Shown one piece after another: positions 3,881 through 28,447 of a DNA stretch of 64,000 nucleotides. The notes beneath the pieces are model-generated. The model was given only the letters and a program-made list of their open reading frames with translations. It had not been told where the DNA came from and searched no databases. The stretch lies in assembly GCF_057098645.1 (NCBI RefSeq), contig NZ_CM169472.1, one strand, 5' to 3'. How positions within the stretch are numbered: position 1 is the first letter of the stretch; each line of letters opens with the position of its first letter. The position numbers were made by a program, and so were the translations under genes.

Positions 3881-6800
3881 TTACGCCTTCTCGATGTTGA
3901 CTAAGAACGCTTTATATTCCGGCGTTTGCGAGTTTGCATCACCGACATTCGGCGTCAGAGTGTTAGCGATATAACCTTTACGCGCGACACCCTCAAAGCC
4001 CCAGTGGATTGGAATACCCACCGTTTCAACCTGCTGACCATTTACATTCAGCGGTTTCAGACGACGCGTTACCACAGCCACCGCGCGGATAAAGCCACGC
4101 TTGCTTGAGACAGTGACACGATCGCCATTATTAATGCCTTTCGCCGCCGCCAGCGTTTCGCTGATTTCCACAAACTGTTCCGGCTGAGCAATTGCGTTGA
4201 GCAATGCGTGCTTGGTCCAGGTGTGGAAGTGCTCGGTCAGACGATAGGTCGTACCCACATACGGGAACTGCTCTTTTTTACCCATCCGCAGTGCGTCTTG
4301 TTCATACAGACGAACAACCGGGTTAGACACCACGTTCGGATGCAGCGGGTTAGTGCCCAGTGGCGTTTCAATCGGCTCGTAGTGTTCCGGGAACGGACCT
4401 TCCGCCATTTTGTTGATGGCAAACAGGCGTCCCATCCCTTCCGGCTGCATGATAAACGGCCCGGTTGGCGTACCCGGTGCGGCATTGCCGAAGTCAGGAA
4501 TATCGTTACCCGTCCACTTGCTGCCGTTCCACTGGATCAGCATCCGTTTCGGATCCCACGGTTTACCGTTGATATCCGCCGAAGCACGGTTGTACAGCAC
4601 GCGACGGTTGAGCGGCCACGCCCAAGCCCATCCCAGCGTATTCCCCAGACCGGACGGGTCGGAGTTATCGAGGTTAGCCATCTGGTTGCCCTGCTCTGTC
4701 CAGCTACCGGTGTAGATCCAGCAAGAAGATGCGGTTGTACCGTCATCACGCAGATGCGCAAAGCTACTCAGCAACTGACCTTTCTTCGCAATCAGCACGC
4801 CATTAGCATCATAGAGATCTTCCAGCGCATAGCCGTTGTTCTCTTTAGCTACTTCGTCAGATTGCGGTTCGTGCGGCTGCTTGTAGTTCCAGCTCATCTT
4901 CATCAGCGGTTCTACGCCTTTACCACCTTCGGCCTGGTACAGCTCGCGCAGGTGATGGTAGATACCCGCCAGAATTTCACCGTCGTTACGCGCTTCGCCC
5001 GGCGCATCCTGACCTTTCCAGTGCCACTGCAGCCAGCGACCGGAGTTAGCAATAGAACCATCTTCTTCAGCAAAGCAGGTCGAAGGCAGACGGAATACTT
5101 CAGTCTGAATAGACGCCGGATCGACATCGTTCGACTCGCCGTGGTTCTGCCAGAAGGTTGAGGTTTCAGTCACCAGCGGATCGATAACCACCATGTACTT
5201 CAGCTTGCTCAGGCAGCTCACCACTTTGTTTTTGTCCGGGAAGGACGCAACCGGGTTAAAGCCCTGGCAGAAATAACCGGTGACTTTGCCTTCATCCATC
5301 ATGTTGAAATACTTGATGACGTCGTAGGTCTGGTCCCACTTCGGCAGCCAGTCATAGCCCCAGTTGTTCTCTTTCTGCGCGGCATCGCCATAGAAAGATT
5401 TCATCAGGCTAACGAAGAACTTCGGATAGTTGCTCCAGTAGTTCACCTGACCAGCCAGCGTCGCTTTCGGCGTGTTCGCTTCCAGATACGACTGCAAATC
5501 AACCTGTTTTTCTGACGGCAGCGTCAGATAACCTGGCAGGCTGGTAGAGAGCAGACCTAAGTCAGTCAGACCCTGAATGTTGGAGTGACCACGCAATGCA
5601 TTCACGCCGCCACCGGCCATACCCATGTTACCGAGCAGCAACTGGATCATCGCCATAATACGGATGTTCTGCGCACCCACGGTGTGCTGCGTCCAGCCCA
5701 GCGCGTACAGGAAGGTGGTTGTGCGATCCGGTGCGCTGGTGGAGGCCAGCACTTCACACACTTTCAGGAAGTCGGCTTTTGGCGTACCACAGATGTTTTC
5801 AACAACGTCCGGCGTGTAGCGGGAAACGTGCGCTTTCAGCAGGTTCCACACACAGCGCGGATGAGTCAGTGTTTCATCGCGTTTCGCATAGCCGTTTTCA
5901 TCGAACTGATAGTTCCAGGACGATTTATCGTATTGCCGTTTTTCAGCGTCGTAGCCGCTGAACAGACCGTCTTCGAAAGCAAAATCATCACGCACCAGCA
6001 GGCTGGCGTTGGTGTAATGCTTAACGTATTCGGCGTTGATTTTGTCGTTTTCGATCAGGTAGCGCAAAACGCCAGACAGGAACGTAATGTCCGTACCGGA
6101 ACGAATAGGTGCGTAAATATCCGCCACAGAAGCGGTACGCGTAAAACGGGGATCGACAACGATCAAGGTTGCATCGTTGTTGTTTTTCGCTTCCATCGCC
6201 CAGCGGAAACCGACGGGATGCGCTTCAGCAGCGTTACCGCCCATTACCATTACGACGTTAGCGTTTTTGATATCCACCCAGTGGTTGGTCATCGCACCGC
6301 GACCAAATGTTGGAGCAAGACTTGCTACCGTTGGTCCGTGTCAGACGCGCGCCTGGTTGTCTACCGCCAGCATCCCGAGGGAGCGGGCAAATTTCTGGGT
6401 CAGCATCCCGGTTTCGTTGCTGGCACCGGAAGCACACAGCATACCGGTAGAAAGCCAACGGTTTACCGTTACGCCCTGCTCGTTCTTTTCAATAAAGTTA
6501 GCGTCACGGTCAGCTTTCATCAGCTTCGCAATACGGGAGAATGCTTCTTCCCAGCTAATGCGCTGCCATTTGTCAGAACCTAGCGCACGATATTCCGGGT
6601 AGCGCAGACGGTTTTCGCTGTTGACGTAATCCAGCAAACCGGCCCCTTTCGGGCACAGCGCACCACGGCTTACCGGATGATCCGGGTCACCTTCAATGTG
6701 ATAAATCGCTTCTCTGGCGTTTTTCGCGCCATCACCCAGGCTATACATCAATAGCCCGCAACCTACGGAACAGTATGTGCAGGTGTTACGGATCTCTTTA

Positions 6801-7159: not shown

Positions 7160-8041
7160 ATGACACGACAAAAAGCAACGCTCATAGGGCTGATAGCGAT
7201 CATCCTGTGGAGCACGATGGTAGGATTGATTCGCGGTGTCAGTGAGGGGCTCGGCCCGGTCGGCGGCGCAGCTGCTATCTATTCATTAAGCGGGCTGCTG
7301 TTAATCTTCACGGTTGGATTTCCGCGTATTCGGCAAATCCCGAAAGGCTATTTGCTCGCCGGGAGTCTGTTATTCGTCAGCTATGAAATCTGTCTGGCGC
7401 TTTCCTTAGGGTATGCGGCGACCCGTCATCAGGCGATTGAAGTGGGTATGGTGAACTATCTATGGCCCAGCCTGACAATTCTCTTTGCCATTCTGTTTAA
7501 TGGTCAGAAAACCAACTGGTTGATTGTACCAGGATTATTATTAGCCCTCGTCGGCGTCTGCTGGGTGTTAGGCGGTGACAATGGGTTACATTATGATGAA
7601 ATCATCAATAATATCACCACCAGTCCATTGAGTTATTTCCTGGCGTTTATTGGTGCGTTTATCTGGGCCGCTTATTGCACAGTAACGAATAAATACGCCC
7701 GCGGATTTAACGGAATTACCGTTTTTGTCCTGCTAACGGGAGCAAGTCTGTGGGTTTACTATTTTCTCACGCCACAACCAGAAATGGTATTTAGCACGCC
7801 CGTCATAATTAAACTCATCTCTGCGGCATTTACCTTAGGATTTGCTTATGCTGCATGGAATGTCGGTATATTGCATGGCAACGTCACCATTATGGCGGTA
7901 GGTTCGTATTTTACGCCCGTACTTTCCTCAGCGCTTGCAGCCGTGCTGCTCAGCGCCCCACTGTCGTTCTCATTCTGGCAAGGCGCGCTAATGGTCTGCG
8001 GCGGTTCCCTGCTCTGCTGGCTGGCGACACGTCGTGGTTAA
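7160..8041 (+). CDS. yddG: DMT-family aromatic amino acid exporter
   Basis: 293-aa polytopic membrane protein; synteny. Confidence 0.9.
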   Translation: MTRQKATLIGLIAIILWSTMVGLIRGVSEGLGPVGGAAAIYSLSGLLLIFTVGFPRIRQIPKGYLLAGSLLFVSYEICLALSLGYAATRHQAIEVGMVNYLWPSLTILFAILFNGQKTNWLIVPGLLLALVGVCWVLGGDNGLHYDEIINNITTSPLSYFLAFIGAFIWAAYCTVTNKYARGFNGITVFVLLTGASLWVYYFLTPQPEMVFSTPVIIKLISAAFTLGFAYAAWNVGILHGNVTIMAVGSYFTPVLSSALAAVLLSAPLSFSFWQGALMVCGGSLLCWLATRRG

Positions 8042-8045
8042 AATA

Positions 8046-8070
8046 ACTGCCGGGTCTACGGCCCGGCAGT
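8046..8070 (+). terminator. Hairpin ACTGCCGGG-N7-CCCGGCAGT after yddG (no clear U-tract)
   Basis: 9-bp inverted repeat 5 bp after yddG stop. Confidence 0.35.
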
Positions 8071-8300
8071 TAATCAGATAAATTCCGACAATATTAAAAG
8101 AATAAATTTCAAATACCAGCAATTCACCTTATATCTCATTTCGACTTCGATCACATATCGATAAATAATATTATTTCATCTATTTTTCTCATTGTTTTTA
8201 ATCACCATTCTATTTTAAAAACAGCATGTCATTTATAAATGACGCCGTTTAAAATTCGTTTAGGAAATACGTTTAACGATAATTAAAAGGATTCTGTTAA

Positions 8301-9398
8301 ATGAAATTAAAAATAGCGGTGGTTGTAACTGGTTTGTTAGCTGCGAACGTAGCACACGCTGCCGAAGTCTATAACAAGGATGGTAATAAACTCGACCTTT
8401 ATGGCAAGGTTACCGCTCTACGTTATTTTACTGATGATAAGCGTGACGATGGTGATAAAACTTATGCCCGTCTCGGCTTTAAAGGAGAAACGCAAATCAA
8501 TGATCAAATGATTGGTTTTGGTCACTGGGAATATGATTTTAAAGGCTATAACGATGAAGCCAACGGCTCGCGCGGCAACAAGACCCGTCTGGCCTATGCT
8601 GGTTTAAAAATTAGTGAATTTGGCTCTCTGGACTATGGTCGTAACTACGGTGTCGGCTATGACATTGGTTCATGGACCGATATGTTGCCAGAATTTGGTG
8701 GCGATACCTGGAGTCAGAAAGATGTCTTCATGACATACCGTACCACCGGTGTAGCAACCTATCGCAACTACGATTTCTTTGGCTTAATTGAAGGGCTGAA
8801 CTTTGCCGCGCAATATCAAGGCAAAAATGAACGTACTGACAACAGTCATCTTTATGGTGCTGACTACACGCGTGCCAACGGTGACGGTTTCGGTATCTCC
8901 TCAACTTATGTTTATGATGGCTTTGGTATCGGTGCGGTATATACCAAATCCGATCGGACAAATGCGCAGGAAAGAGCCGCTGCTAATCCTCTCAATGCCT
9001 CCGGTAAGAATGCAGAACTGTGGGCCACAGGTATAAAGTATGATGCCAACAACATCTACTTTGCAGCTAATTACGCTGAAACATTAAACATGACCACCTA
9101 TGGGGATGGTTATATCTCGAACAAAGCACAAAGTTTTGAAGTGGTGGCGCAATATCAATTCGACTTCGGCTTGCGCCCATCACTCGCTTACCTGAAATCG
9201 AAAGGCAGAGATCTGGGCCGCTACGGCGACCAGGACATGATTGAGTATATCGACGTTGGTGCGACGTATTTCTTCAACCAAAATATGTCGACCTATGTTG
9301 ATTATAAAATCAACCTGATTGATGAAAGCGACTTTACCCGTGCCGTAGATATTCGCACCGATAACATCGTCGCAACGGGCATTACCTATCAGTTCTAA
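8301..9398 (+). CDS. yddL: General outer-membrane porin (OmpC/OmpF/PhoE family), intact 365 aa
   Basis: Signal peptide ending AHA|AEVY; beta-barrel porin sequence with C-terminal Phe; low-GC flanks; the K-12 ortholog is a pseudogene as far as I recall. Confidence 0.8.
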
Positions 9399-23574: not shown

Positions 23575-24102
23575 TTACGAAAGCCTTCTCCCCGCAAGGA
23601 CTGACGCCAGGTAGTTTCTGTCCATGGCTGCTTTTCGCATCTTACGTCTTAACCCAGCCTTGAATACCTTATCATTCGTCAAAATATTAATAGCAATGTG
23701 CCGTATCCCTGAAAATAATTCTGCTGCATTTCCTCTTCTTATTTTGCAGTCGTCTTCATTCATTACCACGTCCAGACGCCAGTGCAGCTTATTCTCCACG
23801 TGCCAGTGGTTTCGGATTGCTGTGGCGAACTTCTCTGCGGTTAAATCAGCAGAACTGATATAATATCTGACCGTCATTTCTGGCTCTTTCTTTTGTTCTG
23901 CTATTATGGACCGAAAGGAGACTGCCACGCATAATTTCTTCAGCCCTTTCCATTCAAACGTGAAATCAATAAGTTCATCAGGAACATCGCAAACAATATG
24001 AAGACGGATTTCTTCTCTGCCGTGACTAAAATGCGAATTATTTAGTACAAAAAAAGCGGCGCACCTTGTTCTTTCCCAGATTCCTAATATGGCAACTTTA
24101 AG
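23575..24102 (-). pseudogene. ISAs1-family (H-repeat-associated) transposase, 3' fragment only
   Basis: Open frame of 175 codons with no start codon; C-terminal region with [22 protein letters not shown] typical of H-repeat ORFs; N-terminal half replaced by AT-rich DNA. Confidence 0.7.
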
Positions 24103-24266
24103 TTATCGCCGTCTATACTTATAGAAATTTCATCAGGGGTGACATAAATAGAATTTTTTTCATCCTCAATTGCCCATAACTGATTAATAAAAAAGTGTTT
24201 TTTATCATCTAATAACAAATCATCACATGTAGTAAAATTATTAATATCAAAAAAAATCATCAGCAC
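24084..24266 (-). CDS. Hypothetical small acidic protein (58-60 aa)
   Basis: ORF only; overlaps the end of the upstream ORF; no clear RBS. Confidence 0.3.
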
Positions 24267-24678
24267 AATTAATTTTTAAATTTAAAAAATAAAGAAAAAT
24301 ATTATTGATTGATTTGAGTGTAAACCACTTGTCATTAACAAATTTATAGCTAGATGATTTTATAAAATAATAATTATCTCCTGGTATAAAGGCATACATA
24401 TCATTTAAGGTTATACTCAACAAAAAACTACGACCTGGTTTAATAGTATTCCAGCGTTCAGGATTCGTATTAATTTCAAAAGGACATGAACCACCTAAGT
24501 AGTCCAACGTGATATTCCCAGAGTTGATCCTGAATGGTTTTTTGCATATCGCATCATATTCATCTCCTTTTCCATCTTTTACTTTCATAGGTAGATAATA
24601 TTTAGAAAAAAAATACGTGGTAGAGCTATTGTTAGTAAAGGTTATGTTAGCAAAAATCCTGTTATTTTTTTTACTCAT
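24247..24678 (-). CDS. Hypothetical protein; frame is open upstream to 24822 without a start (possible disrupted gene)
   Basis: 143-aa ORF from ATG 24678; same frame open for a further 48 codons upstream; an overlapping 38-codon ORF with ATG lies in another frame. Confidence 0.4.
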   Translation of the reverse strand: MSKKNNRIFANITFTNNSSTTYFFSKYYLPMKVKDGKGDEYDAICKKPFRINSGNITLDYLGGSCPFEINTNPERWNTIKPGRSFLLSITLNDMYAFIPGDNYYFIKSSSYKFVNDKWFTLKSINNIFLYFLNLKINCADDFF

Positions 24679-24956
24679 AGCTAATTGAGCATTGACATCC
24701 GCTATATAATTTATATGATTACATTTTTTCTTACACTCATCATAATTTTCGATAGGATAAATTAATGGTCTTCCTTTGATATCTCTCTCAAGCCCAAACC
24801 CGTATTTTTTATTAAAACCATTTCATCCGCAGTCGATTGAAAGGAATAGAAAAATATAATATTTACGATTGTCATTATTATGATTTTTTTATAGCTTGCA
24901 GCATTAATATATTTCTCGACTTATTAGTTAATGGAGAAGTGTTTTTTCTAATTCCG

Positions 24957-25184
24957 CTATTTTTTCTTAACTGAATTGCTTAATATTTCATCATTAATCG
25001 AGTCTATCTCACTTTCAATTAATCTTATTTCAAAATATCTTTCTATGTTATATGCATTCTCAAATATTTGATCTTTTTGTTTAGAGATCAGTTTAGTTGC
25101 AATACGGATATGTTCGTCATATGAAACTTCATCCTCTTTGCACGTTGAATATTTATCAGTAGTTGTATAATCCTGTGACCACAT
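24957..25184 (-). CDS. Hypothetical acidic protein (75 aa)
   Basis: ATG preceded by AAAAGGTGGT; net acidic; AT-rich. Confidence 0.5.
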   Translation of the reverse strand: MWSQDYTTTDKYSTCKEDEVSYDEHIRIATKLISKQKDQIFENAYNIERYFEIRLIESEIDSINDEILSNSVKKK

Positions 25185-25266
25185 ACCACCTTTTTATTAT
25201 CCCCATAATACCACTGAATATGAGACATTTCATGACATAAAGTAGTAACATGAGAATCCTTTCCCG

Positions 25267-25716
25267 TTACTGGATTTTTTTGCCATCTCTATACTCAAAT
25301 TTTGCGCCTATGTTAATTATATAGGACATATCCTTACTTGGGCTGACGAATGCTGCAAATTCATTACAACCTGTATAATTTATAAAACTGCTCATTGTTA
25401 AATCATTAGCTATAATCATTAATCTTCTCACGCCATCCATCATAAGAAATCTAGCATTCATGCGCCTACCTGTATTATATCCATATTTTCTTATATTAAC
25501 TTCCTTATTTCCTTTAACACCAAAGATCTTACTGAAATAATATTCCTCCTGTGCTCCCCATCTCAAAAGATCATCTGCTCTTTTTATCAAAACCAACTTT
25601 TGTGCCTTACGAGCCTTATCAATCATTATTTTAAAATGATCAGTTATTTTTTGCTCTTTCACACATTCTTCTGGCTCTGGCTTTGGTTGTCCAGAAGTTT
25701 GATTATTATCGTCCAT
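25267..25716 (-). CDS. Hypothetical basic protein (149 aa from internal ATG)
   Basis: ATG 25716 preceded by GGAAGGA; net basic; no family recognised. Confidence 0.5.
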   Translation of the reverse strand: MDDNNQTSGQPKPEPEECVKEQKITDHFKIMIDKARKAQKLVLIKRADDLLRWGAQEEYYFSKIFGVKGNKEVNIRKYGYNTGRRMNARFLMMDGVRRLMIIANDLTMSSFINYTGCNEFAAFVSPSKDMSYIINIGAKFEYRDGKKIQ

Positions 25717-25903: not shown

Positions 25904-26194
25904 TCACTTACCAATTAATCTCACAGGAAATCCAACTTCCTTACCACAAATACAATCCCAAGTAACACCTCCCAAAATTTTTGATACTTTAGGCTGCAAT
26001 GGCATTATTGACATTATAAATTTATCAAGTTCTTCGCTATATTTAATTCCCTTTATATTTCTTATTATTGATATTCTAGCAGTAAAGATAGCCGTCTCTC
26101 CATCTACACTAAAAGTGTAATTACAATTTTTTGTAATCTCATCAAATTCAACCGATAACAAATCAATATTATGGTTTGTAAACACTATGCCCAT
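25904..26194 (-). CDS. Hypothetical protein (96 aa), candidate immunity partner of the upstream papain-like domain
   Basis: ATG 26194 overlaps the stop of the upstream ORF by 26 nt. Confidence 0.45.
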   Translation of the reverse strand: MGIVFTNHNIDLLSVEFDEITKNCNYTFSVDGETAIFTARISIIRNIKGIKYSEELDKFIMSIMPLQPKVSKILGGVTWDCICGKEVGFPVRLIGK

Positions 26195-26672
26195 TCCATA
26201 CCTCCTTAAATTCCTGTTCAGTCATCAGATATCGACTCCCTTGATATGGATCATATATTATCACATTCCCAGCATCATCAACACCCTTAACAAGTACCCA
26301 ATGCCCTACTTTACTTCCAGAATCCCATATCATTGCTCCCCATGAACCAGTATTACTGAGGGCATATAAACTAGATTCGCTCACTGCATTCCCTTCCCAG
26401 CCGACATCAAATTTATTAAGCTTGTTTGCCAGCGACGTCATAGATGTTAATTCTGTTCCAATTACATTTTGCGTGACAAAAATATACCTATCCCTAAGCA
26501 ACATTTCCCCACAGGCCGCTCCACAGCCTGTTAAAGTCAATTGCTTTATTACATTTGAATCTAAAACCTCATCAAATACTGTCCAATTGCCACCAGCACC
26601 ACCTTCTAAAACTACCGGCTCTACAAATACTTTCCCAGAGATATTTTCTTCTGGTATTTTTGCGGGTATCCA
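26169..26672 (-). pseudogene. Orphan papain-like (C39-like) cysteine peptidase-fold domain without an ATG/GTG start
   Basis: Frame open 26672-26169; only TTG at 26540; motifs TGCGAACGEML (Cys) and GHWVLVKGVDD...IIYDP (His, Asp) in papain-fold order. Confidence 0.5.
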
Positions 26673-28144
26673 TTACTGGTGGCGTCTTCAAACCGCAGCT
26701 CGTTAAATCCGCTTCCTTTATAGGTTTTTGACCGGATGGTCATCTGCGTCTTCGTTCCCGGCAGGTCGCCCGGCGAACGGTTGTCCTCATGGTAGGTCCG
26801 CCCCATGATTATCGGCTGGTCCGGGTCGCCGTTCAGAAAATCAACAATCACCTCCTGGCCCACCCGCGGTATCGCCAGGTTACCGAACCCCGGCCCCGCC
26901 CACGCCTGCGACACCCGCACCCAGCATGAACTCGCCTCCGTCATCCCGTGATAACGGTCCCAGTGGAACTTCACCCGTACCCGGCCATGCTCGTCGCAGA
27001 AAATCTCTTCTCCCGCAGGCCCGGTGACAATGGCGCTCTGTGGCCCGTCCACCTTCGGTTTGTTTTGCAGCCGTGGACGCCACGTCCGGTCCGCCGGTAT
27101 CACCTCTAACTGATTTCCCAGCGTGGTTCCCTTTCCCTGGCTGCCGTGCAGCGCCTGCGGCTGGCTTCCTGACAGTATGCTCTGTACCACCTGCCATTCA
27201 CGGTTCAGCATCTTCTGCGGATGCCTCGTCAGCGTAAACCGCGTTCCCGGCCACAGCCTCGGCGAATTACTCTGCCCTGTGGCCTTTTCCGCATCACTGC
27301 GCAGGCTGTCCATCTGGTACAGCGTGAAATCCTTGCCGTGCTGCTCGTCCTTGAACCTTCCCGGATAATCAAATATCTCATACTGCGCCAGCTGTCCGTT
27401 CAGGTTCTCACCCTGCTGCTCATACATCCCCGGCCAGTCCGGCACCTTAAACGTGTAATCCTGGCTCTGTACCGACGACGGGCGGACATACGCCTCATAA
27501 CGGAACATACTGACACACTCTGTCTCCGCTCCTGCCGATGTGTCCGGGTTAAACGGAAACTCCCCCGCCTGTGACAGCCCCGCCACATCGTCGCACAGCG
27601 TCAGCTTCTGCTCCGGACTGTCCGCCGCAAACCGCTCAAAGAAGAAAATCCCCTCCTCCGCCCACAGCCGCGCCAGAAACGCCAGGTCGCTCTCACCGTA
27701 CTGGACACAGAACTCCCGCGCCGGATGGTCTTCATAAAACAGCGGAGTCCACTCCGTGACGCCGTTCTCGTTCAGTAACGTGGCCGATACCGTCCGGATA
27801 TCCTGCTGCTGGAAGATACGGAAGTTCTGCCGCAGCCCGCACCGCCATAACGGCGGCTCAATACGCAGGTGATAACGCATCTGCCAGCCATTGTTCTCCT
27901 GCATGCCAAAGCCCGCCACCACGCCGGTAACATAACGCAGCGGGATGACGCCCTGCCAGATGGTCAGCGTCGCCTTCTTCTCCAGCAGCATCCCCGCCGT
28001 CTGCATAAAAGAGTCGCTGGCAACATCCACACTCATCACAAACGGATATGACTGGTTCTGGATTAACCTGAAATTCGCCACTGCAAAGGTGTCCGGCTCC
28101 TGGCCGTCAATCTCCAGCGTAAAGCGCAGACCTTTTAAGGACAT
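26621..28144 (-). CDS. VgrG (T6SS spike) N-terminal gp27/gp5-like portion, truncated at ~490 residues
   Basis: Conserved VgrG blocks incl. SSCWVRVSQAWAGPGFGNLAIPRVGQEVIVDFLNGDPDQPIIMGRTY; C-terminal 20 residues unrelated; GC-rich then abrupt AT-rich junction near 26670. Confidence 0.85.
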   Translation of the reverse strand: MSLKGLRFTLEIDGQEPDTFAVANFRLIQNQSYPFVMSVDVASDSFMQTAGMLLEKKATLTIWQGVIPLRYVTGVVAGFGMQENNGWQMRYHLRIEPPLWRCGLRQNFRIFQQQDIRTVSATLLNENGVTEWTPLFYEDHPAREFCVQYGESDLAFLARLWAEEGIFFFERFAADSPEQKLTLCDDVAGLSQAGEFPFNPDTSAGAETECVSMFRYEAYVRPSSVQSQDYTFKVPDWPGMYEQQGENLNGQLAQYEIFDYPGRFKDEQHGKDFTLYQMDSLRSDAEKATGQSNSPRLWPGTRFTLTRHPQKMLNREWQVVQSILSGSQPQALHGSQGKGTTLGNQLEVIPADRTWRPRLQNKPKVDGPQSAIVTGPAGEEIFCDEHGRVRVKFHWDRYHGMTEASSCWVRVSQAWAGPGFGNLAIPRVGQEVIVDFLNGDPDQPIIMGRTYHEDNRSPGDLPGTKTQMTIRSKTYKGSGFNELRFEDATSNGYPQKYQKKISLGKYL

Positions 28145-28162
28145 AAATACCTCTCAGACATA

Positions 28163-28447
28163 TCAGCCTACATTTACCGTACCGCCACCAATGACCACAC
28201 CACCACAGTCGATGGCATCACCGGTTCTGGCGGCGGGCAGGCCGTCAATAAAGACGGTTGACGAGCCTCTGGCGATTTTACGGGGATGAGGGGGATGCTT
28301 CGGTTTAGCATGCGGCGTCAGCGGATCTCCCTGGCGGGCTGCGGGGAGACCATCGATAAAAACGGTGGATGACCCGGCGGTGATGACGGTCTCGTAATAA
28401 CCGTCGTGCTGGGTGCCTTTGTCGGTGAGTTTGGCTGCTAAAGGCAT
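28163..28447 (-). CDS. PAAR-domain protein (94 aa)
   Basis: Two STVFIDGLPAAR(Q/T)GD PAAR motifs; AGGAGG RBS; 18 bp upstream of vgrG. Confidence 0.8.
   Translation of the reverse strand: MPLAAKLTDKGTQHDGYYETVITAGSSTVFIDGLPAARQGDPLTPHAKPKHPPHPRKIARGSSTVFIDGLPAARTGDAIDCGGVVIGGGTVNVG

Follow-up and report, generated by a model that had tools for sequence, protein, structure and literature searches.

The reading frames at the locus

The sequence analysed here, referred to as the window, is a stretch of 64,000 nucleotides (nt) from contig NZ_CM169472.1 (assembly GCF_057098645.1), an Escherichia coli chromosome of the O145:H28 type. Our subject is a group of broken reading frames on its minus strand (24084..24904), which we read as the remnant of one gene, most probably the immunity gene of a type VI secretion system (T6SS) toxin. 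The region has a G+C content of 29%, against about 51% in its flanks. The ATG at 24875 opens a frame of 37 amino acids (aa) and a stop, that is 38 codons (24762..24875), and a second frame, which has no stop from 24822 until that at 24247 (191 codons plus the stop), holds an ATG-initiated open reading frame (ORF) of 143 aa (24247..24678). The 37-aa ORF and the 191-codon frame overlap at 24762-24822, an interval that includes the motif AATAAAAAAT and a run of six A (A6) at 24805-24810. A preliminary description of this DNA had pointed to these two frames overlapping around A-runs, and its coordinates all hold. The pattern is not due to chance: at 29% G+C about 8% of random codons are stops, which gives an open frame of 191 codons a chance probability of ~1e-7 (a hand calculation from composition), and intact orthologs read through the junction, as described below.

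The true start is the ATG at 24904 (MLQAIKK...), 29 nt upstream of the ATG at 24875, which corresponds to the internal Met11. From this true start the frame ends after 8 codons (MLQAIKKS and a stop), one nt having been lost from the A tract at 24884-24890, and the same ATG in E. coli 042 opens MLQAIKKIIIMTIVN..., a signal-peptide-like N-terminus. The longest ATG-initiated ORF of the remnant, that of 143 aa, contains neither the signal peptide nor the C-terminus. In O145:H28 relatives the Prokaryotic Genome Annotation Pipeline (PGAP) lists a stand-alone 113-aa 'hypothetical protein' (WP_229020649.1) that carries no pseudogene flag. The segments of the remnant, and the homopolymer tracts that separate or lie within them, are:

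24084..24904, minus strand: full extent of the remnant, the 273-codon ancestral gene being broken into four frame segments, delimited by alignment to the E. coli 042 gene (4400-5221 of the 042 locus, L003) and repair of three indels.
24878..24904, minus strand: true start codon and first 8 codons, with the premature end, from the comparison with 042.
24884-24890, minus strand: site A, A8 to A7, a 1-nt deletion by which the true start is cut off; A8 is the state of 042 and of most strains, and within O145 the short allele is specific to the lineage of the window.
24762..24875, minus strand: 37-aa ORF, whose first part corresponds to ancestral residues 11 to about 33, the remainder of the signal peptide and the beginning of the mature protein, and whose later codons are out of frame.
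24805-24810, minus strand: site B, A7 to A6, the junction of the two frames, which parts the signal peptide from the protein body; intact genes have A7.
24247..24822, minus strand: 191-codon open frame, covering ancestral residues about 29-219, with the predicted beta-sandwich core inside.
24665..24672, minus strand: A8 tract at its ancestral length in the window; A7 in other O145:H28 genomes and in UM146, according to the alignments.
24249-24256, minus strand: site C, T7 to T8, a 1-nt insertion that makes a TGA and removes the last 54 codons; 042 has T7.
24084..24248, minus strand: C-terminal 54 codons and stop, displaced, within a 60-aa GTG-initiated ORF (24084..24266), carrying the conserved C-terminal motif of the family.

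An intact 273-codon counterpart and three lesions

In E. coli 042 a single ORF of 273 aa (WP_001544554.1) runs across the junction, with A7 where the window has A6. The 042 island is undamaged and contains PAAR, a VgrG of 801 aa, a 'peptidase M35' of 263 aa whose start overlaps the VgrG stop, the 273-aa 'hypothetical protein' and an ISAs1 remnant. When the window is aligned with 042, all length differences are single bases in A/T homopolymers. Restoring the three bases at sites A, B and C yields a product of 273 aa with no stop codon, 269/273 identical to that of 042 (98.5%), the two genes being separated by 6 synonymous and 4 non-synonymous changes. Since the repaired product is stop-free and this close to 042, the decay must be recent. 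The three indels (-1, -1 and +1) are not multiples of three, orthologs span the junction and there is no alternative complete ORF. By these comparisons, the split frames are best read as a recently inactivated single gene of 273 codons, an ordinary pseudogene with three homopolymer frameshifts. No single polypeptide can now include both the signal peptide and the body, because the site B frameshift parts them.

These results bear out most of what the preliminary description had proposed. A 1-nt indel in the A-run did break one gene, which the comparison with orthologous loci that it suggested as a check makes clear, with a 273-aa ORF in 042 and homologs of 250-315 aa across the junction; the findings that it named as contrary to its proposal, two separate homologous genes or no homolog spanning the junction, are the opposite of what we observe. 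The gene is recently inactivated, as it held, and slippage-prone in the mutational sense, with tract lengths that differ among strains. One indel was expected to merge the frames into a protein of ~210 aa, and a single repair indeed gives 209 aa, but the ancestral gene encodes 273 aa and needs three repairs. The true start at 24904, the displaced C-terminal ORF at 24084..24266 and the similar disruption of the upstream effector gene go beyond that description, so that its interpretation is incomplete rather than wrong.

A family of probably exported proteins encoded next to M35 effectors

Compared with Pfam and NCBIfam, the 273-aa protein gave nothing above threshold, only weak matches to DUF4352 and DUF6157, and a word-indexed protein search returned near-identical E. 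coli sequences only. An exhaustive HMMER search retrieved 88 relatives, of which the full-length ones have 250-315 aa, are 22-39% identical to the query and span the junction. In the family alignment Cys121, Cys141 and Cys214 are nearly invariant and the C-terminal motif IRTNQV..IDGD..S.Y is conserved. A hydrophobic, signal-peptide-like N-terminus ending in small residues was recognised heuristically in 46/51 members and a lipobox in 2/51; the mature part mostly has 4 Cys.

In every locus with enough context, the gene of this family directly follows a gene for a protein of ~240-290 aa with HExxH and GTxD motifs, which abuts or overlaps the end of a VgrG gene (loci L010, L014, L015, L016, L018 and L019, and L025 of strain PAR). 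An immunity gene is expected immediately downstream of a VgrG/PAAR-linked toxin gene and in the same orientation, and this position is observed in the window, 042, 118UI, EcN, PAR, L010, L014-L016, L018 and L019. In the upstream proteins H162, E163, H166 and D183 are invariant among 8 effectors and are also present in the M35 effector of strain PAR (M35-PAR). The effector sequences are divergent, scoring 18.9 bits against Pfam Aspzincin_M35 (E = 0.002), below the gathering cut-off of 30, and the predicted structure has an aspzincin fold. A periplasmic site of action agrees with the signal-peptide-like N-termini of the family and with the report that a related M35-like peptidase of another E. 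coli is toxic only when sent to the periplasm (PMC7904677).

The 042-type immunity gene also occurs alone. EcN has its own M35 gene, then a family member of 227 aa (hhalign probability 100%) and then an orphan 042-type copy (L007 4216-6797), and both EcN and its relatives retain the 042-type immunity gene in genomes that have no 042-type M35, as would be expected of an immunity gene. This is the arrangement in B2 strains: their M35 effector differs from that of 042 and is paired with an immunity gene of the family, and the orphan 042-type copy lies behind the two. An Enterobacterales contig of metagenomic origin (L017 974-4843) carries one M35-like effector followed by at least two tandem immunity members (307 and 281 aa), with a gene of 303 aa next that may be a third, and would be an immunity-gene array. 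In four public predicted proteins (P0002, P0005, P0006 and P0009) this immunity sequence is joined to something else: a 445-aa ORF links the N-terminus of an EcN-type M35 (HEFSH) to the immunity protein, and the others are 'VgrG, partial' entries that run into immunity residues about 90-186. These fusions may be recombination scars or misassemblies in effector-immunity arrays.

Relation to an experimentally tested pair

A member of each family has been characterised in E. coli PAR, where M35-PAR is lethal to E. coli and the cells are rescued when the downstream gene, AKO63_2956, is co-expressed (Commun Biol 2023, PMC10673891). The PAR gene whose start fits the published AKO63_2955 forward primer exactly belongs to the effector family (hhalign 100%, E = 9e-53). 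The next gene, AKO63_2956, encodes 308 aa ending in LYSSMQ, as the published reverse primer predicts, and is a member of the family of the window gene (hhalign 100%, E = 1.6e-60). The 44-nt overlap primer of the same study gave no BLAST match and probably joins non-contiguous DNA. From these sequence relationships, the window gene is identified as the probable remnant of an immunity gene against an M35 effector.

The PAR locus (L025 30770-39429), part of the main T6SS cluster at metV, has two consecutive VgrG-M35-immunity modules, and the immunity gene of the first encodes a shorter member of 203 aa. The second VgrG is flagged 'frameshifted; internal stop' in RefSeq, which is probably why the published study treats VgrG and DUF2345 as two genes.

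Taken together, we assign a probability of about 0.85 to the reading that the remnant is a recently inactivated periplasmic immunity gene of a VgrG-delivered M35 (aspzincin) toxin, in an auxiliary T6SS island of an O145:H28-type chromosome.

Distribution of the tract alleles

Allele counts were obtained with short diagnostic queries against 5,426 complete E. coli genomes. At site B the A6 of the window was found exactly in 32/637 records, and both of those among the matches listed are O145. Another 604/637 records fall in the 95-99% identity band, where all but one of the matches listed are 98.7% identical over 76 nt, corresponding to one extra base. The alleles of sites B and C are common to at least 25 independent O145 assemblies (USA, Belgium, Japan, Korea and Canada), and the site B lesion is clade-specific and reproduced across independent assemblies.

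The other two lesions are distributed differently. The A7 of site A was exact in 26/625 records from scattered, unrelated lineages, and most O145 strains have A8. Its carriers include BEN2908 and isolates from a baboon and a wood-wren, reflecting either homoplasy or a recurrent consensus error. With this allele the annotated start is lost, together with the charged n-region of the signal peptide, and PGAP then starts the gene at the internal Met11. At site C, T8 occurs in 139/533 records, including 118UI, in which the M35 protein does not differ from that of 042 and the downstream coding sequence (CDS) is shortened to 219 aa (L012 1886-2545). Strains with intact M35 effector and VgrG are found among the T8 carriers, and the spread of this allele means either that the C-terminal 54 residues are dispensable for immunity or that many assemblies miscall the tract. 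Further tracts vary in other copies: a deletion in the A6 tract at 24198-24203 gives the orphan copies of EcN and UM146 an alternative C-terminus, and the change from A8 to A7 at 24665-72, common to UM146 and other O145 strains, splits the UM146 copy in two (L008 5399-6183).

Over all 64 kb the window differs from O145:H28 strain RM12761 by 26 single-nucleotide polymorphisms (SNPs), one 3-nt indel and three single-base indels, the last all inside the island. Among the 22 homopolymers of at least 7 bases in the window, 9 lie in the island, and 0/13 of those outside it differ between the two strains. By coordinate mapping, the 3-nt indel, in frame at 8315, and three nearby SNPs (about 7960-8315) apparently lie in ompC, which encodes a surface porin in which variation is expected.

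The island and the partner genes

Over 24 kb the window is 99.9-100% identical to O145:H28 strains RM12761, RM13516, 12E115 and others. On the minus strand the order is yncG, PAAR, truncated VgrG, C39-like toxin fragment, 96-aa gene, M35/hypothetical fragments, ISAs1 remnant and pptA. The features of the island other than the immunity remnant are:

28163..28447, minus strand: PAAR gene, head of the island.
26621..28144, minus strand: truncated VgrG, 507 aa against 801 aa in 042, with its C-terminal third replaced by a segment holding the C-terminal toxin part of cpe1 (cpe1-CT) and cpi1.
26169..26540, minus strand: fragment of the Cpe1 toxin domain (papain-like C39 fold; Pfam PF03412, E = 5e-7), lacking the PAAR N-terminus.
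25904..26194, minus strand: cpi1-like orphan immunity gene, intact, 96 aa, by comparison with cpe1/cpi1 loci (PMC12136450).
24928..25716, minus strand: what is left of the cognate M35 (aspzincin) effector gene, which has lost one nt from each of three A tracts (25275-25281, 25191-25195 and 24960-24965).
23575..24036, minus strand: N-terminally truncated remnant of an ISAs1-family (H-repeat) transposase, at the island edge next to pptA, from the PGAP annotation of near-identical O145:H28 genomes.

The same ISAs1 remnant flanks the island in 042, EcN and UM146. In O145:H28 relatives RefSeq presents the pieces of the M35 effector as separate 'hypothetical protein' and 'peptidase M35' CDSs, not as a pseudogene. 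Promoter and terminator scans of the island gave nothing better than shuffled sequences.

The homology of VgrG ends at about 26671, and the next 0.9 kb (25780 to about 26670) matches cpe1-cpi1 loci elsewhere in E. coli, being 99.7-99.8% identical to loci called cpe1/cpi1 in the annotation of one genome. This segment corresponds to the toxin-domain end of cpe1 and an intact cpi1 (PMC12136450); cpe1/cpi1 encode a cysteine-protease T6SS toxin that cleaves GyrB/ParE and its immunity protein. Here cpi1 stands as an orphan immunity gene that has been retained during the decay of the older M35 pair.

A plausible course of events would begin with insertion of the cpe1-CT/cpi1 module, which would have truncated VgrG and left the M35 toxin without delivery. 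With a toxin that could not be delivered, neither toxin nor antidote would be needed for self-protection, and replication slippage in tract-rich DNA of 29% G+C would then have destroyed both the M35 and the immunity gene. The six homopolymer frameshifts in the M35-immunity pair would fit such relaxed selection after the truncation of VgrG.

Predicted fold and possible mechanism of inhibition

The model of the intact immunity protein, with a predicted local distance difference test (pLDDT) score of 86.6, shows a signal helix, a beta-sandwich spanning about residues 70-190, a pair of helices and, at the C-terminus, a hairpin, and the fragments of the window are collinear with this one predicted fold. 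The closest resemblance of the predicted beta-sandwich core is to that half of the M35 zymogen AsaP1 which is not the protease, its propeptide. Over 171 residues the effector model matches the protease half of this AsaP1 chain, and it matches protease-only structures as well, and for the all-beta immunity model the protease-only structures 1g12 and 1eb6 are not among the matches listed. Since the immunity model matches AsaP1 but, among the matches listed, not these structures, it must align to the propeptide half. The predicted fold is similar to M35 propeptides and to BsuPI-like beta-sandwiches.

In the structural study of AsaP1 the propeptide was reportedly described as a beta-sandwich by which the active site is blocked. 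Propeptides of M35 enzymes act as inhibitors (PMC11985622), and the models suggest a propeptide-like inhibition of the effector. The intact immunity protein would be exported by its Sec signal peptide and stabilised by disulfides, and its beta-sandwich core would bind the active-site face of the effector, much as an N-terminal propeptide blocks the M35 protease domain. A further step, which we propose tentatively and at a little under even odds, is that the family corresponds to the propeptide of M35 zymogens in free-standing, exported form, the pair having arisen by the splitting of a self-inhibited protease, with immunity through occlusion of the active site. Effector and immunity protein together would then recapitulate the two halves of an AsaP1-like pro-enzyme. 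Neither a split-protease origin nor propeptide-style immunity is described in the literature covered by our limited search.

Alternative explanations

The fact that all lesions lie in A/T runs of 5-8 bases raises the question of whether the gene is intact and the single-base differences are homopolymer miscalls of sequencing or assembly. The window departs from its closest relatives only at three such runs, and the same length alleles turn up in unrelated assemblies, which is what platform errors would produce. The A6 of site B and the T8 of site C, however, are identical in at least 25 O145 assemblies from different laboratories, countries and years, and the long homopolymers outside the island show no differences at all from RM12761 (0/13). 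The neighbouring effector and VgrG are also independently broken, and the replacement of ~0.9 kb of VgrG is beyond any miscall. An artefact is therefore unlikely for sites B and C and possible for the alleles specific to the window, and as an explanation of the whole locus we consider it very improbable. We give equally little credence to a gene that is still switched or recoded, through contingency tracts (phase variation) or through slippage of the ribosome or RNA polymerase that would yet yield immunity protein. The sequence does offer some grounds for it: in the incoming frame the sequence of site B is A_AAA_AAT, a heptamer of the -1 slippery type at which a -1 shift restores the ancestral frame, at site C (UUU_UGA) the frame is restored by a +1 slip on the T run, and tract lengths are polymorphic across E. 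coli at at least 4 sites. But at least two shifts of opposite sign would be required per molecule, three if translation begins at the true ATG, and tracts of 6-8 nt are shorter than those on which transcriptional slippage is known to be substantial in E. coli. Site B is in frame in about 95% of genomes, so that the shift is not conserved, and no stimulatory structure was found, the 79 nt after site B folding no better than shuffled sequences (minimum free energy -11.4 kcal/mol, z = -0.07). With the effector and VgrG partners dead, there is no module left to regulate. Programmed frameshifting and phase variation are accordingly rejected. Least credible of all is that the frames are two or three separate small genes (37, 143 and 60 aa). 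This is what automatic annotation implies, PGAP calling the stand-alone 113-aa CDS in O145 genomes as an unflagged gene, but in orthologs and distant homologs alike one protein of 250-315 aa extends across all the junctions. The 143-aa ORF does not have the signal peptide of the family, and the fragments follow one another along one predicted fold; separate small genes are refuted by the intact orthologs.

The reading as an inactivated immunity gene is left as the best account of the locus, and several points weigh against it or against parts of it. Neutralisation by the 042-type pair is carried over from the PAR pair, the one that has been experimentally tested. The order of events, truncation of VgrG first and decay after, is one that we infer. 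T8 alone may not abolish function, since it is present where the effector is intact (118UI). Within O145 the window-specific alleles (24884-90 and 25191-95) are shared only with RM12275-C1, and may be homopolymer miscalls rather than real slippage. The family profile had no match at E <= 10 among all PDB sequences, and common ancestry with propeptides is unproven.

Significance

The family has an experimentally tested member, and the pseudogene is an ordinary one, one more frameshifted gene in a decaying, horizontally acquired island, with little at stake. Its main practical use is the correction of annotation, as the 113-aa 'hypothetical protein' and the 'peptidase M35' fragment of O145:H28 genomes would become two pseudogenes. 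In addition, a hypothetical family that has no Pfam or NCBIfam model gains a name and a probable role, tied to AKO63_2956 and to M35 T6SS effectors across Enterobacterales, and the predicted fold offers a concrete, testable mechanism of propeptide-like inhibition. The variable A/T tracts provide a natural lineage marker, and also a warning about homopolymer calls when M35 susceptibility is inferred from genomes. Shiga toxin-producing E. coli (STEC) O145:H28 is predicted to have lost both the M35 weapon and the shield, keeping the intact orphan cpi1, and the strain would no longer be protected against a 042-type M35 attack by other E. coli.

Comparison with known systems

The closest tested system is M35-PAR with AKO63_2956, which belongs to the same two families and has the same order of VgrG, effector and immunity gene. 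The identity is low, ~23% for the immunity protein and 33% for the effector, and the PAR pair is located in the main T6SS cluster at metV, whereas the window pair is in an auxiliary island at yncG-pptA. Unlike that of PAR, the immunity copy of the window is a pseudogene.

A similar logic is found in Pseudomonas aeruginosa, where the immunity protein PA0261 needs its signal peptide and DsbA and neutralises the C-terminal metallopeptidase of VgrG2b by binding (Wood et al. 2019, PMC6899460). Both systems have a VgrG-linked periplasmic zinc metallopeptidase toxin and, directly downstream, an immunity gene whose product has a signal peptide and conserved cysteines. The VgrG2b toxin is fused to VgrG, and PA0261 is encoded by a small ORF with lipoprotein homologs in enterobacteria, in contrast to the window family of ~270-310 aa with a lipobox in 2/51 members, a comparison made by description only. 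Because PA0261 immunity needs its signal peptide, the window gene, in which signal peptide and body are split, should lose protection, and by this analogy the site B frameshift should abolish it.

The proposed propeptide-like mode of inhibition is to be set against the AsaP1 propeptide (PDB 2X3A/B/C) and the intracellular proteinase inhibitor of Bacillus subtilis (PDB 3ISY). There is no detectable sequence similarity to either, and the immunity protein differs from both in that it is exported as a polypeptide of its own and has additional helices as well as a hairpin at the C-terminus.

The island itself resembles the decaying Rhs/VgrG islands of E. coli. The rhsE-ydcD-ISAs1 region of K-12, which we take to be such a decaying Rhs/VgrG-type island at the same chromosomal site, has the same flanking ISAs1 (H-repeat) remnant. 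In these islands, as here, AT-rich cargo is displaced by newer modules, and intact orphan immunity genes are mixed with dead toxin fragments. The present case differs in that the carrier is VgrG/PAAR and not Rhs, and in that inactivation has occurred by homopolymer frameshifts and not by truncation.

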